64,000 bases of DNA from a bacterium (lineage in GTDB: Bacteria > UBA8248): assembly GCA_965213625.1 (NCBI GenBank), contig CBDBZU010000004.1, positions 3,648,001 through 3,712,000 of the forward strand. Reading direction: 5' to 3'. The notes under the pieces are model-generated. The model had not been told where the DNA came from and did no database searches. It saw only the letters and a list, made by a program, of their open reading frames with translations. Position numbers and translations under genes: made by a program. Of the stretch, positions 50,860 to 61,879 are shown in pieces; the first letter of the stretch is position 1; every line of letters begins with the position of its first letter.

Positions 50860-52374
50860 CTATTTCTCCGCGCCGTGCCCGTTGCGTTCTGCGGGGTCGG
50901 TCACTTCCAAACTACCCTTAAGCCCGAACAGACGCTGCATTTTCTTCCTGAAGGACGGGGTAAAAAGCTTTTCGGCATAAAATCTCCCCGCCACCCTTTT
51001 ATTCACCTGCGCCAGCGTAGGATACACGTGAACCGTATCCACCACTTCTTTGATGTGCATCTTCTTCCGGACGGCCAGTACGAACTCGTGCAATATCTCT
51101 CCCGCTGCAGGCCCGACCAAATCAGCCCCCACGAGCCTGCCCTTCTCGTCACACACCACCTTGCATATGCCTTCGGTTTCCCCGTCCAGGACGGCTCGGT
51201 CCACCCGGCTCATCGGAAAGCGAAAAACTTGTACGCGATTCGCCCCCAAGGCAGCTTCGGCGTCAGCTTCGCTCAAGCCGACGTGCGCCGCCTCGGGCGT
51301 GGTGTAGATTGTCCAGGGCACGGCATCATAGTTCGTCTTTTTTTTGAGAAACGGGAGCGGAATCCCGAACGGCGCGCTGAAAAGCATGTTCCTGAGCGCC
51401 ACGCCTGCTTCATACTCTGCCATATGGGTGAAGAGAAACTGCCCCCGGATGTCACCGGCGGCGAAGATGCGCGGATTCGCGGTTTGAAGATATTCATTCG
51501 TCTCCACACCGCGTTGGGTATAATTTACGCCCGCCTTCTCCAAATCCATTCCACCCACGTTGGGCGATCGGCCAGTCGCGATGAGCAGTTGATCGCACAC
51601 CCACTCTCTTTTCCCCGATGGCGTATCGGCCTCTAAAAAAATTCCTTCCCCTCGCTTCTCGACTCTTTGCGTGTTCACATTGAAATGGAGTTTCATGCCG
51701 GACTCCGTCAACGAATCCGAAAGAATTTCGGCCATTTCCATATCGAGCCTCGGCAAGAGCTTCGGCGCGCTTTGCAGCACTTCCACATCGGCGCCGAGTT
51801 GCTGAAACGCCTGTGACAGTTCCAGACCTATCGGTCCCGCTCCCAACACCACCAGGCGTCTCGGCAATTCTTCCAAGTCGAAAACGGTTTCGTTCGTGAG
51901 ATAGGGCACGCTTTCGAGACCGGCTATGGGCGGCACGAAAGGAGAACTCCCCATGGACAGTAAAAACCGCTTGGCCCGCAGGGTTCTGTCCCCAATCTGA
52001 AACGTATCGGGACCGGTGAAAGCGCCATCTCCGAAGATCACCTCGATTCCCATTCCTTCGAAACGCTCGGGCGCGTCGTGCTCGCCGATGTGGGCCTGGG
52101 CCGCCTTCATACGCTTCATGACGCGGGGAAAATCGACCCGCACATCGCTTACGTCAATCCCGAATTCGGGCATCAAGCGCGCCTGCGCCGCCAGGCGAGC
52201 CGAGCGAATCAGTCCTTTCGAAGGCACGCATCCATAGTTCAGGCAATCCCCGCCGAGCTTCGCTTTCTCCACGAGCGCGGCTTTAGCCCCCAGTTGGGCA
52301 GCCCCAACGGACGCTACCAGACCGCCGACTCCCCCCCCGATGGATACCAAATCAAACACCGACTCATTTTGCAT
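50860..52374 (-). CDS. Pyridine nucleotide-disulfide oxidoreductase (MerA-like family, no C-terminal CC)
   Basis: GGDCLNYGCVPSK, GAGPIGLE, FTHMAEY, HVYPTL. Confidence 0.88.
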   Translation of the reverse strand: MQNESVFDLVSIGGGVGGLVASVGAAQLGAKAALVEKAKLGGDCLNYGCVPSKGLIRSARLAAQARLMPEFGIDVSDVRVDFPRVMKRMKAAQAHIGEHDAPERFEGMGIEVIFGDGAFTGPDTFQIGDRTLRAKRFLLSMGSSPFVPPIAGLESVPYLTNETVFDLEELPRRLVVLGAGPIGLELSQAFQQLGADVEVLQSAPKLLPRLDMEMAEILSDSLTESGMKLHFNVNTQRVEKRGEGIFLEADTPSGKREWVCDQLLIATGRSPNVGGMDLEKAGVNYTQRGVETNEYLQTANPRIFAAGDIRGQFLFTHMAEYEAGVALRNMLFSAPFGIPLPFLKKKTNYDAVPWTIYTTPEAAHVGLSEADAEAALGANRVQVFRFPMSRVDRAVLDGETEGICKVVCDEKGRLVGADLVGPAAGEILHEFVLAVRKKMHIKEVVDTVHVYPTLAQVNKRVAGRFYAEKLFTPSFRKKMQRLFGLKGSLEVTDPAERNGHGAEK

Positions 52375-52435: not shown

Positions 52436-53962
52436 TCAAGATGTTACCTTATCCAATGGTTTCAGCCCGAACAAGAAAAACAAGACCGCTATGAGCAAAT
52501 ATCCTACAGCTATCCCGGGCGCCGCTCCCCAGCCGAAGAAGCTGACGACGCCTCCGGGTGTGATTCGCCAGGCATGAATTACCCCGAGCCAGCTCAATAC
52601 CGCGCCGGCCAGCGCCCATCCTCCCGCCTGCTTCGGTTCCTTGTCGATCAGCTTCGCCACGATAGCCGTCAAGATGATAGACGTAAAAAGAAAACCGCGT
52701 TCCAAGGTGACCATCCCCACAAGGTGAAATCCAGCCTTGGCGAACGCGTCCTGCCCTACTTTCCACAAGTTCGTACCCGCTCCTCTGAGTGAGGATTCCA
52801 CCATCAGCAAGCCCCAAGCGGCGATGGCGGGTATCAGGCCGATGGCCACGGCCGGTCCGTGGCTCTTTGGCACAGCCTGGAAAGCCTGGGTGAGCATCAT
52901 CACTCCGATCCAGAGCATGAGGGCGAAGAGCGCCTCGCCCGGAATGATTTTTGAAAGCGCCGCTATCGAGCCGGTGAAGCAAAGAATCGTCATCACGATT
53001 CCGTTCAATGCGCTGTAGCCAGCGCGCGCCCCGACCTTCTTCCAGGCCGGATGTCCGATATATATGGTCGTCGGGAAACAACTACCCAGACACGCCGCGA
53101 GAAGCGAGCCTGCTCCGTTCACCGCCAGGGAACTACCAGTGTCGTAACTGTCGCCGGCTGCGGCTGCGCTCTCCAGGCACATCAGGCTGCCCACCAGCGT
53201 CATCAGGCCCATGGGGATGGAAACCGCGAGGTAGTCCCATGCCAGCGGACCGAAAAGCGCGTCGGATAAAGGGCCAAGGGCGGAGGATGGAAGCGCCAGT
53301 CCCACAGGCGCGGGAATTCCCCCCGGAAAACCCTTGAATACGGCGGATAAAACCACTCCCACCGCAACCGCCACGAGTCCCCCCGGCACACCGAAGGGAA
53401 ATCTGAATCCGCCAAAATAATGAACCAGGATAATTCCCAGAGGCACCATGGCGAGGAGCGGGTTTTCCCATATCCTGAACGCGAAATCCATGGAGATGAA
53501 CGTTAGCGCAATGCCCCCCAGAGCAGAGAGCAAAGCGGCCCTCGGCGCGACTCGCCTGATACGTTCACCCACCAGCGAGCCTGCGGTCTCGATCACCCCG
53601 CTCACGAAACAGGCCGCCAGACCCGCCTGCCAGGCCGATTCGGCGCTTCCGGTCTTGAGTTTCACGGGCAACATGACGAAAAAGATGAACGCGAAAAGCG
53701 TCACCGTGTTGAGGCCGTAAGGCATGGCGGTCACATCGTCGCGGCCTTCGCGCTTGGCCAGACGGCGCGCCTGCCAGGTGTAGAAAAGATTACCGCCCAG
53801 AAGGCTCAACGCCGCTGCGGGCAGCACACTGCCAAAGATGAGTGAATCTGGAAATCCCAGCAGTCCTTTTAAGAAACCCACGATGAGAAGAAGATTGATG
53901 AGGTTGTCCATCCACAGGCCGAAGAAGCCGTCGACATCACCCTTGACGAACCATCTAGGCAT
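52436..53962 (-). CDS. NCS2-like permease
   Basis: GDVDGFFGL, DVTAMPYG, PTTIYIGHP...GARAGYS; many TM segments. Confidence 0.8.
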   Translation of the reverse strand: MPRWFVKGDVDGFFGLWMDNLINLLLIVGFLKGLLGFPDSLIFGSVLPAAALSLLGGNLFYTWQARRLAKREGRDDVTAMPYGLNTVTLFAFIFFVMLPVKLKTGSAESAWQAGLAACFVSGVIETAGSLVGERIRRVAPRAALLSALGGIALTFISMDFAFRIWENPLLAMVPLGIILVHYFGGFRFPFGVPGGLVAVAVGVVLSAVFKGFPGGIPAPVGLALPSSALGPLSDALFGPLAWDYLAVSIPMGLMTLVGSLMCLESAAAAGDSYDTGSSLAVNGAGSLLAACLGSCFPTTIYIGHPAWKKVGARAGYSALNGIVMTILCFTGSIAALSKIIPGEALFALMLWIGVMMLTQAFQAVPKSHGPAVAIGLIPAIAAWGLLMVESSLRGAGTNLWKVGQDAFAKAGFHLVGMVTLERGFLFTSIILTAIVAKLIDKEPKQAGGWALAGAVLSWLGVIHAWRITPGGVVSFFGWGAAPGIAVGYLLIAVLFFLFGLKPLDKVTS

Positions 53963-54138
53963 TGGAGTACCCCTGTTCAAGGTCAACACTTCAAACCGAG
54001 CGCACCTCAACTTCCGGGATAGTAAAACACGCGGGCTTGTTCACCAAAGCCCCCGAGGCAGTTTTTATCATCCTGCCCGTTTTGGTATGCTTCACGCATC
54101 GACATAAATCACCTTCGTGTTCATCGGGGAGAAAAGCG

Positions 54139-54891
54139 ATGGAAGCTGTCAAAGTCTACACGCGGCACGGCTGATACACCTGCGCCCTTACGAGAGAGTT
54201 TCTCTCGTCCAGCGGTCTGGAAGTCATCAACAGAGACTGCACGAACGACACCGAGGCCCAGGCGGAACTGAAGGCGCTCGGCATCAAGGCCCTGCCCGTC
54301 GCCGTACGCGGCGAGAACGTAGTGGTGGGCTACGACGTGGATGCGCTTCGCGAAGCCTTTGACATCGAACAGGCAGGCGCAGGCCCCCTTTCGTCTGAAC
54401 AAATTCTCCATTATTTCGAGATGGTCTTTGACGCCTTACGCCGCGTGATCCGCCAGATTCCATACGAAACGCTCGACTGGGTAACCCCCGGCAGACCCCG
54501 CACGCTTCGCCAGCTCACATGGCACAGCTTCGAGCGCCCGGACCTCGTGATGCAGACTCACGCATCAGGAGAGTACACAGAAGATATGGTGCGGCGGTAT
54601 GAAACGATGGCGAACGATTATGATACCAACGAAGATATATGCGCCTACGGGGATGAGATACAGGCCAAGCTCACCGATTTCCTGACCGACGGCGGCGAGG
54701 CGCTCGCCAAAAAAGTGTCGAGCTATATGGGGCCCATCACCGTCCATGAGTTGATGATTCTCTCGCTCGGGCACGCCTTCCAGCATTTACGGCAAACCTA
54801 TCACTATTTCGAGATGCTGGAGATTGTGCCGGAAAACCCGCTGCAACCCGAAGACTACGAAGAAGTGCCCGTGCCTACGGATCTCTTTTAG
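54139..54891 (+). CDS. Glutaredoxin-like (UxxC) domain fused to a DinB-like domain, probable selenoprotein (TGA at 54172-54174)
   Basis: ATG at 54139 (GGGGAG upstream) gives MEAVKVYTRHG-(TGA)-YTCALTREFLSSSG...ELKALGIKALPV...VVGYD, in frame with ORF 54322..54891 (LTWH, HAFQHLRQ). Hairpin at 54190-54208. Confidence 0.85.
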
Positions 54892-54921
54892 TCCAGTTTT
54901 GTTTTCCAAGGAGGCCGCTTG

Positions 54922-56199
54922 ATGCCCTCGAATGACACGTTCCCCCTCCGCGCGAACCGCGCCCGCATGAGGCGTGAGTTCAACGCGCAGGCGAAAATCG
55001 GCAAATACGGAAAAACGGGTCTCGACCGCGTGGCCTTCACGCCGGTCTACAACGAGGTGCGCGACCTCGCCGAGGGCTGGATGAAGGATGCGGGCCTCGA
55101 GACGCGGGTCGACGCCGTGGGGAATCTCTACGGCAGAAAAGAGGGCCGCGTGCGCGGACTCCCCGCGGTGATGGCCGGCTCGCATCTCGATTCCCAAAGC
55201 CCGGGCGGACGCTTCGACGGTCCCGCCGGCGTGCTCACCGCTCTCGAAGCGTTCCGGCGCATCGACGAGACGGGAATCGCCCATGATCATCCCATCGAGA
55301 TAGTGGCCTTCGTGGGAGAAGAATCCGCTTGCGGGATGACGGTGTTCGGCAGCAGCGTCGCCACGGGTGTCGTGGGCGTGAAGGATTTGAAGAACACGGA
55401 GCATCCGCCCACGGGAAAATCACTGTACGAGGCAATCGAGGGAGTGGGCGGGAATCCTGCGCGCGTACGTTCGTGCCGGATTAAAAACGACTCGCTCAAG
55501 GCGTTTCTGGAACTTCATATCGAACAGGGCCCTGTACTCGAAACAGCCGAGATACCCATCGGCATCGTCGACAGGGTGGTGGGATACACGAGAGGCGAGG
55601 TTCATTTCACGGGCGTCACGGCGCACTCGGGCGGACAACCCATGCCATACCGCAAGGACGCCGGCATCGCGGCGGCGGACTTCATGGTGCGCATGGAGAA
55701 CATCGTGAACCGCGCGCCCGATTCCCAGCGCGTAACAATCACCTTCGGCGAGATGGAGGCGCTCCCGGGATGGGTATCCATCGTGCCAGGAGGGGCGAGA
55801 CTTTCCTTCGACCTCAGAAGCAGAAGCCAGGCGGTAATGGATCGCACCCTCGCGCGAATGGAAAAAACACTCGCCGCCATCAAGAAGGAGCGAGGCGTAC
55901 AGGGCCGCCTCTCCGACGTGAAGAAACTGGCCGTCTGCCCCGCGTCCAACAACATTCAAAAGGCGCTCCGCCGCGCCTCCAAAGAAACGGGACACGCCGC
56001 GCTCACACTGTCGAGCGGGGGAGTTCACGACGCCTGCCGCATGGCGGCGATATGCCCGATGGGCATGGTGTTCATCCCCTCGGTGGGAGGGCTCTCGCAT
56101 ACGCCCGAGGAATTCACGCATTTCGACGACATGGTGAAGGGCGCTGAGATCCTCGCTTCAGCTATTTCGCATCTCACCAACGAGAAGGTAAAGGCGTAA
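54922..56199 (+). CDS. Zn-dependent hydrolase (allantoate amidohydrolase / N-carbamoyl-L-amino acid hydrolase, M20)
   Basis: GSHLDS, GRFDGPAG, EE, ELHIEQGP, HDA, GLSHTPEE. Confidence 0.9.
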   Translation: MPSNDTFPLRANRARMRREFNAQAKIGKYGKTGLDRVAFTPVYNEVRDLAEGWMKDAGLETRVDAVGNLYGRKEGRVRGLPAVMAGSHLDSQSPGGRFDGPAGVLTALEAFRRIDETGIAHDHPIEIVAFVGEESACGMTVFGSSVATGVVGVKDLKNTEHPPTGKSLYEAIEGVGGNPARVRSCRIKNDSLKAFLELHIEQGPVLETAEIPIGIVDRVVGYTRGEVHFTGVTAHSGGQPMPYRKDAGIAAADFMVRMENIVNRAPDSQRVTITFGEMEALPGWVSIVPGGARLSFDLRSRSQAVMDRTLARMEKTLAAIKKERGVQGRLSDVKKLAVCPASNNIQKALRRASKETGHAALTLSSGGVHDACRMAAICPMGMVFIPSVGGLSHTPEEFTHFDDMVKGAEILASAISHLTNEKVKA

Positions 56200-56316
56200 A
56201 GCCAACGAATCTCTCGATTTTTTCATATTTTGGTGAATAAAAACGTCGTTTATCGGTATATACCGATAAGGGTAGGATTGCATGTGGCAATCCCACCAAC
56301 TTAGGAGACGGCCGAA

Positions 56317-57102
56317 TTGACAACAACCAACAATTCCAAAAGATGGCTGCCCGGCGTTCCGTATGAAGAAATCGAAAAAATCTTCAAAGCCGCACCAGGC
56401 AATGAGATAGATAGCAGGAAGATTGACAGCCCGGAATCCTCCGCCGCGCTCGCGGCCAATACCTTTGGGTTCTTTCTCAATCGAGCGCATGATCTGCCCC
56501 TCCTTCCTGAATGTGACCAAAGGAAATGGCCACCGGTTTCATTGGCTCTTGAAGAAACTGTCCGCTTCCCTTGGCGTGGCGGTCGGCATCCCGTTCTGGA
56601 TGCCCTGGTTATCACGCCATCTGAGCTCATCGGTATCGAGTCCAAAAGGTTTGAGCCTTTTCGAGGAAACAAGAAAGCCTCTTTTTCTAGTGCGTATTGG
56701 AGGCGGGTATGGGGCGAGCGCATGAAGGGTTACGAGAACGTAAGAGACAAACTTCACAACAACGTAAGACGCTATAAACATCTAGACTCGGCTCAACTCG
56801 TCAAACACGCCTTTGCTTTGAGAACGCAAATCCAACCGGGGGGCAAATACGAAGGCCGAAAGGCCACCCTATTCTATATTTATGCAGAACCTGAGTGTTG
56901 GCCAAAAGATGGCAGACCCATCGACAAAAAAATGAAATTTCAACACAAGGAGGAAATTAAAATTTTTACAAAAAATATAATGGAAGACGAGGTGAAATTC
57001 ATTGCCTGCGCCTATGGAAAATTGCTGGCAGATTGGAAACAGAACCGAGCACCAGAAATTCGAGCGCATACAAAAGCCATTGTCCAGCGCTTTTCGCCCT
57101 GA
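56317..57102 (+). CDS. Putative PD-(D/E)xK restriction-endonuclease-like protein (PGN_0703-like)
   Basis: SSAALAANTF, LDAL...IGIESKRFE, QLVKHAFAL; locally AT-rich; TTG start. Confidence 0.6.
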   Translation: MTTTNNSKRWLPGVPYEEIEKIFKAAPGNEIDSRKIDSPESSAALAANTFGFFLNRAHDLPLLPECDQRKWPPVSLALEETVRFPWRGGRHPVLDALVITPSELIGIESKRFEPFRGNKKASFSSAYWRRVWGERMKGYENVRDKLHNNVRRYKHLDSAQLVKHAFALRTQIQPGGKYEGRKATLFYIYAEPECWPKDGRPIDKKMKFQHKEEIKIFTKNIMEDEVKFIACAYGKLLADWKQNRAPEIRAHTKAIVQRFSP

Positions 57103-57260
57103 AATCCCTTTAAGATTTTCAAGTTATTGTAAGCCTAGGCGTATTATGATAAATTTCGCTACCTCAAAATAAGTAAGTATGAATGTATTGCCGCAGACAC
57201 GTTTGCGGCGCAGCGTCTCGAAACCGAAACTCTATGGATAAAATCGAGAGGGAGAAAAAA

Positions 57261-58520
57261 ATGGGCAGGATAATCAGGCACGTCATTCTCGGATTTGCGC
57301 TGCTCCTCGCCGTGAGCATCGCCTTCACGCCCGCGGCGCAGGCGGCCAAAGAAGTGAAGATTGGATTCAGCATGGCGCTGACCGGACCGCTCGGCCCCGC
57401 CGGCAAGGCGGCGCTGCTGGCCATGCAGATCTGGCGCGACGACGTGAACGCCAAGGGCGGATTGCTGGGCCGCAAAGTCAAGCTGGTCTATTACGATGAT
57501 CAGACCAAACCCGCCAACGTTCCGGGTATCTACGCCAAACTCCTTGATGTGGACAAGGTGGACTTTATCGTCTCCGGCTACGGGACGAACCTCATCGTTC
57601 CCGCGCTGCCCATCGCGATGGAGCGGGGCATGGTGTTCATGGGGCTGTTCGGCCTGGATGCGAACGCGAAGTTCAAATACAACAACTACTTCCAGATCAT
57701 GCCGGCAGGCCCCGACCCGATAGTGGACTGGTCGCGCGGCTTCTTCGAACTCGCCAAGAAGCAAAAGCCCCAACCCAAGACGATTGCGCTGCTCTCGGCA
57801 GATTCCGAGTTCGCGCGCAACGCCGTGGCCGGCGCCCGCCGGAACGCGAAGAAATACGGATTGAAGGTCGTCTACGACCAACGCTACCCCTTCCCCGGCA
57901 CGTCCGACTTCACGCCGATTCTGCGCGCGGTCAAGGCAGCGAACCCGGACCTCTTCTACGTGGGTTCCTACCCGGGCGGTTCGGTGGGCATCGTGAAGGC
58001 CGCGCATGAGATCGGCCTCGAACCCAAGCTCTTCGGCGGCGGCATGGTGGGACTTCAATACACCGCCATCCAGATGAACCTCGGCAAACTGCTGAACGGC
58101 ATCACGAACTACTGGTTCTGGGCGCCGGAGAAGACCCTGAAGTTCCCCGGCATCGAGGCCTTCCTGGCGAAATACCAGAAAGAAGCGCCCAAGCAGAAAC
58201 TCGACCCGCTGGGCTACTACCTGCCGCCGTTCGCATACGCCTACGTGCAGTTGCTCGGAAATGCGATCGAGGCCACCAAGAGCTTCGACCAGGCGAAGGT
58301 CGGCGCCTACATCCGCAACAACACCCATTCCACCGTGGTCGGAAACGTGAAGTTCGGCAAGAACGGCGAGTGGGCGACCTCCCGGACGTTCCAGGTGCAG
58401 CTGCAGAACATCAAGAGCAACAAGATGAGCGAGTTCAGCAAACCCGGCAAGATGATCGTGCTGTATCCCGAGGACTTCAAGTCCGGAAACCTCATCTATC
58501 CATACGCGAAAGGCAAGTAA
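57261..58520 (+). CDS. Branched-chain amino acid-type ABC transporter substrate-binding protein
   Basis: Signal peptide, KIGFSMALTG, VNAKGGLLGRKVKLVYYDD. Confidence 0.9.
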   Translation: MGRIIRHVILGFALLLAVSIAFTPAAQAAKEVKIGFSMALTGPLGPAGKAALLAMQIWRDDVNAKGGLLGRKVKLVYYDDQTKPANVPGIYAKLLDVDKVDFIVSGYGTNLIVPALPIAMERGMVFMGLFGLDANAKFKYNNYFQIMPAGPDPIVDWSRGFFELAKKQKPQPKTIALLSADSEFARNAVAGARRNAKKYGLKVVYDQRYPFPGTSDFTPILRAVKAANPDLFYVGSYPGGSVGIVKAAHEIGLEPKLFGGGMVGLQYTAIQMNLGKLLNGITNYWFWAPEKTLKFPGIEAFLAKYQKEAPKQKLDPLGYYLPPFAYAYVQLLGNAIEATKSFDQAKVGAYIRNNTHSTVVGNVKFGKNGEWATSRTFQVQLQNIKSNKMSEFSKPGKMIVLYPEDFKSGNLIYPYAKGK

Positions 58521-58540
58521 CGAACCGGACATAAAACTGC

Positions 58541-58568
58541 GACCGGGGGGAGACCTCTCCCCCCGGTC
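58541..58568 (+). other. Intercistronic stem-loop after the SBP gene
   Basis: GACCGGGGGGAGA-CC-TCTCCCCCCGGTC near-perfect inverted repeat, no U tract. Confidence 0.6.
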
Positions 58569-58597
58569 CGCGTCCGGCTCGTCGCAGGAGCGCATCC

Positions 58598-59470
58598 ATG
58601 CTCAGCTTTGAATTCTTGTTGAACGCACTCGTCGCGGGCCTCCTGCTGGGAGGCTTTTACGCCGCGTTAAGCGCCGGTCTTTCGCTCTCATTCGGTTTGC
58701 TGGACGTCGTGAACATCGCCCATCCGGCGTTCATTCTCTTCGGCTCCTACCTGACTTTCTACGCGAACGAGCACTTCGGGTTCGACCCGGTGCTCGCGGG
58801 CCTTATCTTTGCGGTTCCCGCCTATTTCGTGGGCGTCGCGGTCTACAAAATCTACTACAACAGCTTCGAGAAGACGGGGGCGGAATCCCTGCGCGGACTG
58901 GTGTTTTTCTTCGGACTCTTTTTCCTCATCGAGGTCATACTCATCATCACCTTCGGGGTGGACTACCGCCTCGTCCGCGCGTTCTACATCGGCAAGTCCA
59001 CCTCCATCGGTGCTGTGGGAATCGCCTACCGGCTGTTCGTGCCCTTCCTCGTGGGGGGGATACTCTCCACTGTCCTGTACCTGTTTCTCACAAAAACGTT
59101 TTTCGGGCGCGCCATCATGGGCGTCGCGCAGGATAGCCTCGCGGTGCAGCTCATGGGGGTCGACCCGATTCGCATCAAGACGGTCGCCTTCGGCATCGGC
59201 ATCGCCACCGCCGTGATCGCGGGCTCTTTGCTCATCATCATCGGCCCGGTCGAGCCGACAATCGGACGCGAATACATCGGCCGCGTGTTCGCGGTCACCG
59301 TCCTCGGCGGGCTGGGCAGCATGACGGGCACGCTCGTGGGCGCGCTCATCCTGGGCGTCGCGGAGAGCTTCACCTCTTCGTTCTTCGGCCCATCCTGGGC
59401 GCTGGCCGTCTCGTTCGGCATTCTGCTCATCTGCCTGGCGGTCCGGCCGTCCGGCCTCTTCGGGAGGTAG
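58598..59470 (+). CDS. ABC permease (LivH-like)
   Basis: GLSLSFGLLDVVNIAH, VLGGLGS, RPSGLFG. Confidence 0.9.
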   Translation: MLSFEFLLNALVAGLLLGGFYAALSAGLSLSFGLLDVVNIAHPAFILFGSYLTFYANEHFGFDPVLAGLIFAVPAYFVGVAVYKIYYNSFEKTGAESLRGLVFFFGLFFLIEVILIITFGVDYRLVRAFYIGKSTSIGAVGIAYRLFVPFLVGGILSTVLYLFLTKTFFGRAIMGVAQDSLAVQLMGVDPIRIKTVAFGIGIATAVIAGSLLIIIGPVEPTIGREYIGRVFAVTVLGGLGSMTGTLVGALILGVAESFTSSFFGPSWALAVSFGILLICLAVRPSGLFGR

Positions 59471-59473
59471 CCC

Positions 59474-60433
59474 TTGAGTAACGAAAAGAGGCTCTTCCTG
59501 ATCGTGGCCGCCGTACTCGTAGTCGGGGCATTCCTCATCACGACCCAGATGGAGAACCGCTTCTACTACAAGGCGGCCTACGTCGTCTTGCAGTACGTCG
59601 TCCTGGCCACCGCCTGGAACATCCTGGGAGGCTACACCGGATATGTGAATTTCGGCACGGCGGCGTTCTTCGCCATGGGCGCCTATACCGCCGTGGCGCT
59701 TATCAAGACCTGGAAGCCACCCCTCTACGTGCTGCTCATCTCGGGAGGCATCGTCTCGGGCCTCCTGGGACTCGGAATCGGCTACCTGACCTTGAGGCTC
59801 AGGGGCGTGTTCTTCTCCATCGCCACCCTCGCGCTGGCCGTCGTGCTCCAGATGGTCGTCTCGAACTGGGACTACGTGGGCGGCGGCGCGGGCACGGCCA
59901 TCCTGAAACCAAGGAGCGTGCCGCTGTTCTCGAACTACGACGAGTTCCTCTTCTTCGTCATGGCGGCGCTCGCCGTGGTCGCCGTGGCCGTCGCCTGGCT
60001 CATCGAGAAATCCTGGGTCGGGCGGGGAATGGCCGCCATCCGCGACAACGAAGAAGCGGCCGAGTGCATGGGCGTGCCCATTCTCAAAATCAAGCTGTTC
60101 GCCACCACGGTGAGCGGGGCGCTGATGGGAATCGCGGGCGCGCCGTTTTCCTATTTCGTCGTCTACATCGAACCCACATCGGCCTTTCACCTGGACTACG
60201 CTGTGAACAGCCTCGCCATGCCCATGATCGGCGGCACTACCTCTTGGCTGGGTCCGCTGGTCGGCGCGGTTCTGGTCGGCACTGCCCAGCAGATAGCCAC
60301 CGTCACCCTCTCCGCCGAGATGAACCTGCTCATCGTGGGCAGCCTGCTCGTTGGCTTCGTGGTGTTCGCACCCGACGGCCTCGTGGGCCTGTTCGGCAAG
60401 ATTCGCGCGCGCTTCGTGGGCAAGGAGGCGTGA
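59474..60433 (+). CDS. ABC permease (LivM-like)
   Basis: WNILGGYTGYVNFG, RLRGVFFSIATL, AIRDNE. Confidence 0.9.
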   Translation: MSNEKRLFLIVAAVLVVGAFLITTQMENRFYYKAAYVVLQYVVLATAWNILGGYTGYVNFGTAAFFAMGAYTAVALIKTWKPPLYVLLISGGIVSGLLGLGIGYLTLRLRGVFFSIATLALAVVLQMVVSNWDYVGGGAGTAILKPRSVPLFSNYDEFLFFVMAALAVVAVAVAWLIEKSWVGRGMAAIRDNEEAAECMGVPILKIKLFATTVSGALMGIAGAPFSYFVVYIEPTSAFHLDYAVNSLAMPMIGGTTSWLGPLVGAVLVGTAQQIATVTLSAEMNLLIVGSLLVGFVVFAPDGLVGLFGKIRARFVGKEA

Positions 60434-61158
60434 TGAGCGAGAATCTCCTCGACGTACACGGCGTCACCAAGCGATTCGGCGGATTCAGCGCGCTCACCAA
60501 AGTGGACCTGCACGTGAAGGAAAACGAGCGCTTCGGCCTCATCGGTCCCAACGGCTCGGGCAAGACAACCATGATCAACTGCATCTCGGGCGCTCTCAAC
60601 AACGACGAAGGTAACATCGTCTTCGCCGGACGGGACATCACCAGGATACCCGCCTACCAGCGAACCCGCCTGGGCATCGCCCGCAGCTTTCAGATTCCAA
60701 AGCCGTTCGTCAGCATGACGGTGCTCGAAAACCTCTGCATCCCGCTCGAATACGCCGCCCACCAGCACTCCCACGGAGTGGAACTGCGTGACGAGGCCAT
60801 GGAAATACTCGAGATAATGAGCATGGCGGACAAGGCCGACGTGCGAACCGGGGGACTCACCCAGATCGAACTGCGCAAGCTCGAACTCGCCCGCGCCATG
60901 GCGGCCAAGCCGAGGCTCCTCATATCGGACGAGGCCATGGCCGGCCTCTCCAACACCGAGGTGGACGACATTCTCGAAATCCTCGTGCGTCTGAACGAGG
61001 AGGGCCTCACGGTCATCATGATCGAGCACATCATGCGGGCGGTCATGAACTTCTCGGAGCGCATCGTCGTCCTCGACGCCGGGGAAAAGATAGCCGAGGG
61101 GACGCCCGATGAGATCGTCAACAACAAGGACGTGGAAAGGGCCTACCTTGGCGCATAG
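60433..61158 (+). CDS. ABC ATPase (LivG-like)
   Basis: GPNGSGKTT, IARSFQ, DEAMAG, IEH. Confidence 0.9.
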   Translation: MSENLLDVHGVTKRFGGFSALTKVDLHVKENERFGLIGPNGSGKTTMINCISGALNNDEGNIVFAGRDITRIPAYQRTRLGIARSFQIPKPFVSMTVLENLCIPLEYAAHQHSHGVELRDEAMEILEIMSMADKADVRTGGLTQIELRKLELARAMAAKPRLLISDEAMAGLSNTEVDDILEILVRLNEEGLTVIMIEHIMRAVMNFSERIVVLDAGEKIAEGTPDEIVNNKDVERAYLGA

Positions 61159-61879
61159 CATCGTCGTCGACAACGTATCCGCTGGCTACGGCGCCGTGCG
61201 CGTGCTGCACGGGGTCTCCATCGAGGTGAACGACGGGGAGACCGTGGTGCTGCTCGGCACCAACGGCAACGGCAAGAGCACGCTCATCAAGTGCATTATG
61301 GGCATGGTCCAGCCCGATGAGGGCGCGATTTACTTAGAAGCCGACGGCGAGCGGATCGATCTGGCGGGCAAGAAACCCGAGGAGATCGTGAACCTGGGCG
61401 TCGCACTCGTGCCCGAGGGCAGGCGCCTGTTCCCGCGCCTCACAGTGGAGGAAAACCTTCTCCTGGGCGCCTACCGCGAAGAGGCCCGCCGCGGCATCGA
61501 CCGCAACCTCGCCTTCTCCTTCGAAGCCTTCCCGGTCCTCGCCGAGCGCAAGAACCAGCTCGCGGGCAGCATGAGCGGGGGCGAGCAGCAGATGCTGGCC
61601 GTGGCACGCGCGCTCATGTCCGCACCCAAAGTGCTCCTGGTGGATGAACCCTCCGTCGGCCTGGCGCCCATCCTCGTGAGCCGGGTGATCTCCAAGATCC
61701 GGGAACTGAAAGAAGAATACCAGCTCACCGTCCTCATGGCCGAGCAGAACTTCAATCAGGCGGTCAAGATAGCCGACAGGGGCTACATCATCGTCCACGG
61801 AGAGATAGCCTTCGCGGGCGAGAACACCGAAGCCTTGGTCGGCCACGAACTCGTGAAGAAATACTACCTCGGCGTGTGA
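61148..61879 (+). CDS. ABC ATPase (LivF-like)
   Basis: GTNGNGKST, VPEGRRLF, MSGGEQQ, DEPS; TTG start overlapping the LivG-like stop. Confidence 0.9.
   Translation: MAHSIVVDNVSAGYGAVRVLHGVSIEVNDGETVVLLGTNGNGKSTLIKCIMGMVQPDEGAIYLEADGERIDLAGKKPEEIVNLGVALVPEGRRLFPRLTVEENLLLGAYREEARRGIDRNLAFSFEAFPVLAERKNQLAGSMSGGEQQMLAVARALMSAPKVLLVDEPSVGLAPILVSRVISKIRELKEEYQLTVLMAEQNFNQAVKIADRGYIIVHGEIAFAGENTEALVGHELVKKYYLGV

Follow-up and report, generated by a model that had tools for sequence, protein, structure and literature searches.

In a 64,000-nucleotide stretch of a bacterial genome of the lineage UBA8248 (contig CBDBZU010000004.1; hereafter the window, meaning the whole stretch analyzed), the forward strand between positions 54139 and 54891 most probably encodes a genuine selenocysteine (Sec)-containing protein in which a glutaredoxin (Grx)-like domain is fused to a DinB-like domain. 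That the product is a selenoprotein at all can be held with still greater confidence. Comparison with related genes indicates that UGA codon 12 is read as Sec by the SelA, SelB, SelD and tRNA-Sec of the same genome, guided by an 8-bp hairpin downstream of the codon. A fusion of this kind had been proposed in the initial annotation of the window; here we describe the evidence that bears on it, the family to which the protein appears to belong and the chemistry that it may perform.

Translated with TGA as Sec (U), the full coding sequence starts at the ATG at 54139, carries Sec at codon 12 and ends at the TAG at 54889-54891, giving a protein of 250 residues. The frame reads MEAVKVYTRHG, TGA and YTC, contains exactly one TGA and is then open to the TAG; the TGA itself (54172-54174, forward strand) would encode U12 of the motif UYTC. 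A Shine-Dalgarno-like GGGGAG can be read in the sequence at 54126-54131 on the same strand, 7 nucleotides 5' of the ATG, and a GGAG-type motif lies at the same distance from the start in 35 complete homologous loci. In a scan of positions 53900-56400 no promoter-like sites were found, and terminator-like sites occurred at the chance level. The motifs on which the initial annotation relied are all in place: KALPV (with P53), VVVGYD, LTWH (with H129) and GHAFQHLRQ (with H212 and H216). It had also remarked that the Grx domain escapes the list of open reading frames (ORFs), and indeed the list made with genetic code table 11 gives only 54322-54891, 189 residues from a GTG start. Public annotation has the same gap, as 39 of the 41 closest protein records start 3' of the Sec site and the other two print W there. 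The two W-reading records, P0010 and P0015, come from short contigs, and their W is evidently the product of a gene caller that used a code with TGA as Trp. No Pfam or NCBIfam (release 20) family covered the fusion when the window protein was scanned.

The proposal presupposes a genome able to insert Sec, and the window's genome has all the parts that were sought. The selA and selB genes are adjacent (564 and 388 bits, respectively), selD scores 333 bits and has one in-frame TGA of its own, and a tRNA-Sec with anticodon TCA, as read by ARAGORN, scores 75.9 bits; all four exceed their curated cut-offs. At the selD locus (L011; G000:C4:1518852-1519814) the TGA lies at about residue 10 (…KAGG-U-GSKLG…) and is followed by a predicted stem-loop whose apical loop is GGA. 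TGA ends 24 of the 47 long ORFs in the window, where it is the commonest stop codon, and for this reason it appears not to be reassigned in this organism. A 2026 database paper ranks the lineage of the window among those with the richest selenoproteomes (PMC13326102).

The in-frame TGA is a constant feature of the closest relatives. Among 185,579 species genomes scanned, 36 loci came up with 48-96% identity to the query; their records are labelled Nitrospinota, Nitrospinaceae, Candidatus Tectomicrobia, in one case Candidatus Sulfotelmatobacter, or simply "bacterium". All of the 22 other genomes of the same genus, and 2 genomes of the same family, hold a full-length match with exactly one TGA, which makes 25 with the window's own. 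In 35 of 35 complete loci codon 12 is TGA and follows M-[ED]-x-V-K-[VI]-Y-T-R-H-G; the 36th locus ends at a contig edge. The minimum numbers of changes at the first, second and third positions of codons 2-11 are 7, 4 and 23, and because they fall mostly at third positions, the codons that precede the TGA seem to evolve as coding sequence. One related genome has a second copy (L085; G023:C20:672-1436), 48% identical and also with one TGA. The locus labelled Sulfotelmatobacter (L078) is of the same divergent type and lacks the M20 and permease neighbors described below. Related genomes also contain short matches that resemble glutaredoxin and have one or two TGA codons (G001:C1:3013225-3013479, G013:C2:1753352-1753663, G011:C1:3482573-3482812 and G017:C240:13212-13451); these may be small genes like Sec-glutaredoxins, of the UXX-star kind.

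Homologues with cysteine (Cys) in place of Sec, for which the initial annotation had suggested looking, are abundant. A protein search of 1.84 billion representatives yielded 460 relatives at E <= 0.001, of which 103 were aligned. Among these, 36 cover the site and read CxxC there, mostly as PGC[ST]SC, with the first Cys aligned to U12; 2 read WxxC, and the remaining 65 start 1-32 residues past the site. One Cys form alone matched 1583 sequence clusters at E <= 1e-20, which carry generic names such as "glutaredoxin", "DinB family protein", "NrdH-redoxin" or "glutaredoxin domain-containing protein" and include Ramlibacter, Xylophilus, Burkholderia and Herminiimonas among the named organisms. 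Eight Cys forms were scanned for domains: Pfam Glutaredoxin was found in all 8 and DinB_2 in 7 (22.4-34.7 bits), and no NCBIfam model rose above its cut-off on the Grx-DinB region of these eight or of the window protein. One relative, P0161 (721 residues), is an MmgE/PrpD-family enzyme fused to Grx-DinB; residues 4-250 of the window protein align to its residues 471-716.

The relation between the two forms was also followed in the DNA itself. When metagenomes were scanned with Cys forms as seeds, at least 568 relatives turned up, from which 80 loci were kept. Adding the genome loci and the window brought the set to 117 genes, 110 of them usable; the other 7 lacked the motif region, mostly at contig ends. 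The aligned codon is TGA in 58 of the usable genes and TGC or TGT in 52, and the 74 usable metagenome loci divide into 22 with TGA and 52 with TGY. In a quick maximum-likelihood tree the clade of the window has 36 rows, all Sec, with the motif TRHG-U-[YF][TS]C. The other main branch has 74 rows with the motif WQPG-[C/U]-[ST]SC, 52 of them Cys and 22 Sec, the latter distributed over several clades. At least 4 changes between Sec and Cys are needed on this tree, and well-supported branches alone force 2. The window protein belongs to a large, as yet unnamed Grx-DinB family whose members alternate between Sec and Cys forms.

A hairpin resembling a selenocysteine insertion sequence (SECIS) lies on the forward strand at 54190-54208, as identified by folding and comparison. 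As the initial annotation had described, it is a perfect 8-bp stem that starts at the 16th base past the UGA: the arm ACGAGAGA (54190-54197) pairs with TCTCTCGT (54201-54208) across the loop GTT (54198-54200), so that the GUU of the transcript lies 23 nucleotides past the UGA. Rules of the bSECISearch type ask for a stem-loop that follows the UGA at a set short distance and has a G in its apical loop, and the hairpin of the window fits them. Among Sec forms (56 distinct sequences) 90.4% of the cells at the hairpin columns are paired, whereas slid controls give 38-68%. In 25 cells, at 3 pairs, both sides have changed, G-C to A-U 16 times and A-U to C-G or G-C 8 times, and the covariation score was matched by 0 of 500 shuffles. 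Cys forms (51 distinct sequences), in contrast, have 35.8% of these cells paired, no better than shuffles or slid controls. When the eight pair positions were held fixed, 35 Sec genes formed 8 pairs, 8 formed 7, 10 formed 6, 1 formed 5 and 4 formed 4, whereas 21 Cys genes formed 2 pairs, 19 formed 3, 11 formed 4 and 1 formed 5 (Mann-Whitney p 5e-20, a value overstated because related genes are not independent of one another). The 3' arm depends on the Ser codon that comes after K-E-F-L; Ser is present in all Sec forms, and most Cys forms have Thr, Ala or Gln at this place. A Sec subclade with …KEFLSV… pairs less, at 4-6 of the 8 fixed positions (L131, L134, L135, L140, L145, L146, L149, L155, L158 and L164); by eye, the register of its hairpin seems to be shifted, with GUUUC forming the 3' arm. 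Rfam gave no match within 54000-54400 at E <= 1.

The N-terminal part of the protein, about residues 1-76 (54139-54366, forward strand), is a predicted Glutaredoxin/NrdH-like domain of thioredoxin fold that contains UYTC and the Pro53 of ALPV. Pfam PF00462 Glutaredoxin matches residues 4-56 with 32.2 bits against a cut-off of 22.9 (E 1.2e-7), and the sequence of the Protein Data Bank (PDB) entry 7c10, Glutaredoxin, is matched at E 7.6e-10 with Sec12 on the first Cys of CPHC. Foldseek searches with this part of the model found 7c10 and 7c12 (TMt 0.88; 38-40% identity over 70-73 columns), BC3987 and NrdH proteins, with 4hs1 and 1h75 also listed. P53 is present in all 103 aligned homologues, and both motif Cys are invariant in 34 aligned Cys forms; the invariance of the second one speaks more for a redox cycle than for a lone nucleophile. 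Membership in the NrdH-redoxin or YruB equivalogs was considered and rejected, as the scores stay under the NCBIfam curated cut-offs (TIGR02194, 38.5 vs 85.75; TIGR02196, 43.7 vs 88.55; NF007657, 28.8 vs 131).

The remainder, about residues 86-250 (54394-54888, forward strand), was assigned by Pfam, Foldseek and profile searches to the DinB/YfiT-like four-helix bundles, in agreement with the fold initially proposed for it. It scores 25.0 bits on Pfam PF12867 DinB_2. The structures found by Foldseek with this part are 6iz2 (TMt 0.82), 2qe9, 1rxq, 2p1a and 3dka, these five at probability 1.00, and further 2nsf, 8f5v and ClbS 6anr. A profile of the domain reached PDB 3di5 at E 4.6e-4 and placed H129, H212 and H216 (codons 54523-54525, 54772-54774 and 54784-54786, forward strand) on its H...HxxxH; this putative His triad reads HHH in 96 of the 103 homologues. 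An AlphaFold model built on a 104-row alignment has a predicted local distance difference test (pLDDT) score of 96.4 and a predicted template modeling score (pTM) of 0.91, without a weak segment. Its layout is a thioredoxin-type beta-alpha-beta-alpha-beta-beta-alpha domain (residues 1-74) that a short linker connects to a helical bundle (residues 86-226). In this confidently packed model, then, a thioredoxin-fold domain is predicted to be joined in one chain to a DinB/YfiT bundle with its His triad, and the structural reading of the initial annotation, a Sec glutaredoxin fused to a DinB-like domain, is borne out.

Each half of the protein has known counterparts from which the whole departs. 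The N-terminal domain is like the Sec-glutaredoxins, being 38-40% identical to 7c10 ("cGrx1"), which we take to be a Clostridium oremlandii protein and natively a selenoprotein. Unlike the known Sec-glutaredoxins, which are free-standing and of about 80 residues, the window protein carries a DinB domain of 165 residues. Enzymes of the DinB fold are known for their use of free thiols, for example mycothiol and bacillithiol. The bundle of the window protein resembles that of the thiol-dependent DinB/YfiT enzymes (8f5v, 2nsf, YfiT 1rxq and DR0053 6iz2) in its four helices (TMt 0.61-0.82) and conserved H...HxxxH; by their entry titles 8f5v and 2nsf are a mycothiol S-transferase and a mycothiol-dependent maleylpyruvate isomerase. 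It differs from them in sequence (12-17% identity), and they rely on a low-molecular-weight thiol in free form and lack a fused redoxin. Canonical glutathione S-transferases (GSTs) also combine an N-terminal thioredoxin fold with a helical C-terminal domain, and Foldseek lists them over the whole length. However, these matches have a TM of 0.27-0.36 and a root-mean-square deviation of 10-18 Å, only the N-terminal domain fits, and the C-terminal domain is DinB and not GST_C. Membership among the GSTs was rejected on these whole-length deviations and on the lack of a Pfam GST hit, and on the modeled fold the resemblance is best described as analogy, not kinship. The UXX-star and HUGP/GUXX-star selenoproteins (NF041212, NF041114, NF041211, NF047338 and NF045501) share a distant Sec-bearing Grx-like fold, and NF045501 indicates that Sec-Grx-like domains do occur fused. 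Going by their names, these proteins end two residues past Sec, unlike the window protein, which has UYTC and 238 residues more. Membership in UXX-star was rejected as well, with scores under the cut-offs (36.8 vs 66 for NF041212; 21.3 vs 325 among the others).

In the literature searched we found no Sec or Cys glutaredoxin fused to DinB, although BSepDB Table S2 and deep-Sep Table S2 may name the family. A 2026 review counts Glutaredoxin (PF00462, UxxC) among the validated bacterial selenoproteins (PMC13188914), and the words "DinB" and "YfiT" occur 0 times in this review and in the deep-Sep paper (PMC12013277). The statement of the initial annotation that no characterized example is known agrees with this literature; it is not proven beyond it, as the family may stand in supplementary tables. 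Sec-glutaredoxins and many UxxC selenoproteins of thioredoxin fold are thus already known, and what appears new is the fusion to DinB, for which a prior listing is possible.

The gene that follows is a member of the M20 amidases, as initially proposed (Pfam Peptidase_M20), and belongs to the hydantoinase/carbamoylase family (54919-56199, forward strand). It begins at TTG 54919 or ATG 54923 after an AAGGAGG, 27 nucleotides past the fusion gene, with which it is probably co-transcribed. It scores 343.8 bits on TIGR01879 (cut-off 204) and stays under the cut-offs for ErtE, an N-carbamyl-L-glutamate amidohydrolase (367.5 vs 520), and for allantoate amidohydrolase (383.7 vs 399). A link to ergothioneine catabolism, considered from the ErtE-like score, was set aside, as that score is below the cut-off and the literature search gave no support. 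In 30 of the 36 loci of the genome scan the M20 gene is the immediate downstream neighbor and has the same orientation; these include the most distant marine loci, at 54-57% identity.

On the other side, a divergent polytopic membrane protein of 524 residues is encoded at 52436-54010 on the reverse strand, with a likely start at ATG 53962, as judged from translation, ESM Atlas and synteny. A divergent membrane protein gene is found upstream in 27 of the 36 loci. It had been described as a divergent NCS2-like permease: the divergent membrane protein is there, and the NCS2 label is weakly supported, by ESM Atlas cluster names only. The match, at 0.99, is to clusters named NCS2/AGZA xanthine-uracil permease, and the product is possibly an NCS2/AzgA-type permease; searches of Pfam and NCBIfam found nothing for it with the threshold relaxed to E 0.1, nor do any of the matched clusters carry a common Pfam family. 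Beyond it, at 50860-52374 on the reverse strand, lies a class I flavoprotein disulfide reductase with a CxxxxC motif, which is nearby in 22 of the 36 loci. Past the M20 gene, at 56317-57102 on the forward strand, a gene of the "restriction endonuclease associating with ARP" type (PF22558) stands before the next conserved gene. Complete copies are confined to the window and L044 (81% identity), L062 and L076 have fragments, and the gene looks like a variable insertion. Neither Pfam nor NCBIfam matched three long ORFs on the reverse strand (57159-58595, 58688-60190 and 60196-61173), of which the first two are kept downstream in most loci of the same genus.

The other main branch of the family has its own recurrent neighbors, namely TctC solute receptors (15 loci), PCMT (8) and MmgE/PrpD (6, as free-standing genes beside Cys forms in metagenome loci), and further a short-chain dehydrogenase, LysR, an NMT1-type binding protein and one MmgE/PrpD-Grx fusion protein of 721 residues. 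As the neighbors differ between the branches, the family seems to use its chemistry on different small acids from lineage to lineage.

Several observations weigh against the proposed fusion selenoprotein and its setting. The single-sequence fold of the hairpin region is ordinary (z = -0.76; 46 of 200 shuffles fold equally well), and the hairpin overlaps the conserved peptide T-R/K-E-F-L-S, so that its conservation is partly protein-driven; the weight given to the hairpin comes from the comparative data, not from the fold of one sequence. The DinB_2 cut-off of 24.8 bits is cleared by 0.2 bits only. Six of the 36 loci in the clade of the window lack the M20 gene (L065, L067, L068, L071, L078 and L079), and the other main branch has neither M20 nor permease neighbors. 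The flavoprotein reductase was set aside as a dedicated reductase: it stands beside a 2-oxoacid dehydrogenase E2 gene and is for that reason more likely the E3 of that complex. It could also be that the UGA simply terminates and that translation from an internal start, for example GTG 54322, yields a DinB protein alone, with the upstream part untranslated or serving as an 11-residue leader, as the table-11 ORF, the late start of most public gene calls and the frequent use of TGA as a stop in the window would suggest. Yet no stop interrupts the frame from the TGA to 54322, the Glutaredoxin domain encoded there is significant by Pfam and extends across the TGA, codons 2-11 change as coding sequence does, the TGA is kept in 57 other genes and the Cys forms are full-length fusions with CxxC. 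The truncated public calls, moreover, start at various places (reference positions 13-44), as gene callers do past an unrecognized Sec codon. Translation from 54322 only is contradicted on these grounds, and we regard it as very improbable. Decoding of the UGA as Trp, Cys or Gly, through a variant code or near-cognate read-through, could be invoked from the W of P0010 and P0015, but this is extremely improbable given the regular use of TGA as a stop in the window, the complete Sec machinery, the hairpin specific to the TGA forms and the site itself, which is that of the redox Cys of CxxC, where Trp would be chemically senseless. A TGA is one base away from TGC or TGT, and a nonsense change in a Cys codon, in a pseudogene or through an assembly error, would give the same letters; the chance of this is practically negligible, as the same TGA recurs in those 57 genes, which come from separate assemblies, reach down to about 25% protein identity and have no other in-frame stop, and as the Sec/Cys switches on the tree are repeated ones, two of them forced by well-supported branches.

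In the Sec-containing Grx-DinB fusion, Sec12 occupies the N-terminal nucleophile position of a U-x-x-C motif of the glutaredoxin/NrdH type. For the function of the protein we tentatively propose a scheme, which as a whole may well be wrong. The His triad would hold a divalent metal that binds and polarizes a small substrate, probably one with carboxylate or ureido groups. Sec12 would attack the metal-held substrate, Cys15 would resolve the adduct to a selenenylsulfide, and a cellular disulfide reductase system would re-reduce the motif, such that the enzyme would carry its own thiol or selenol instead of bacillithiol, mycothiol or glutathione; the initial annotation had proposed a tethered selenol that replaces or recycles the low-molecular-weight thiol. 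In the clade of the window the product would pass to, or the substrate come from, the carbamoylase-type M20 amidase, and uptake of the substrate may be by way of the permease encoded divergently. The most far-reaching version of this scheme, a thiol-independent DinB enzyme whose tethered selenolate sits at, or swings onto, the metal bound by the three His and acts as the catalytic nucleophile, we consider unlikely. The UxxC center could instead be a redox relay or switch, with the DinB domain, as a metal-dependent hydrolase, isomerase or S-transferase, catalyzing alone with a free low-molecular-weight thiol, and with UxxC reducing the mixed disulfide or product, or toggling the enzyme. Both motif Cys are kept in the Cys forms, as in disulfide-cycling dithiol oxidoreductases, the nearest solved relatives of the N-terminal domain (7c10 and the NrdH proteins) are free-standing redoxins, and there are free-thiol enzymes among the DinB folds, going by the titles of 8f5v and 2nsf. 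Against this stand the retention of a single chain across so large a family (1583 clusters) and the modeling of the two domains as one rigid body, which suggests a shared active site; neither is decisive, and a relay or switch seems to us somewhat unlikely. We leave the remaining probability to a chemistry that neither scheme foresees.

The gene of the window, 35 homologues from public genomes and 22 from metagenomes are very probably genuine Sec genes that gene callers have truncated or misread. Of the 103 cluster representatives, 65 start just past the site, and the family may rank among the larger selenoprotein families that lack annotation. Since Cys forms occur in cultured Burkholderiales, genetics is possible. 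The permanent fusion of DinB to its own CxxC or UxxC redoxin suggests a built-in thiol. If the tethered selenolate proved true, it would give a selenium-metal active site of a kind so far undescribed and, with the carbamoylase-type amidase, a two-step breakdown or detoxification of an imported compound that is ureido, nucleobase-like or bears sulfur or selenium; in that case the Cys/Sec family, with over 1500 clusters, would represent an unrecognized class of single-chain thiol transferases, isomerases or reductases.

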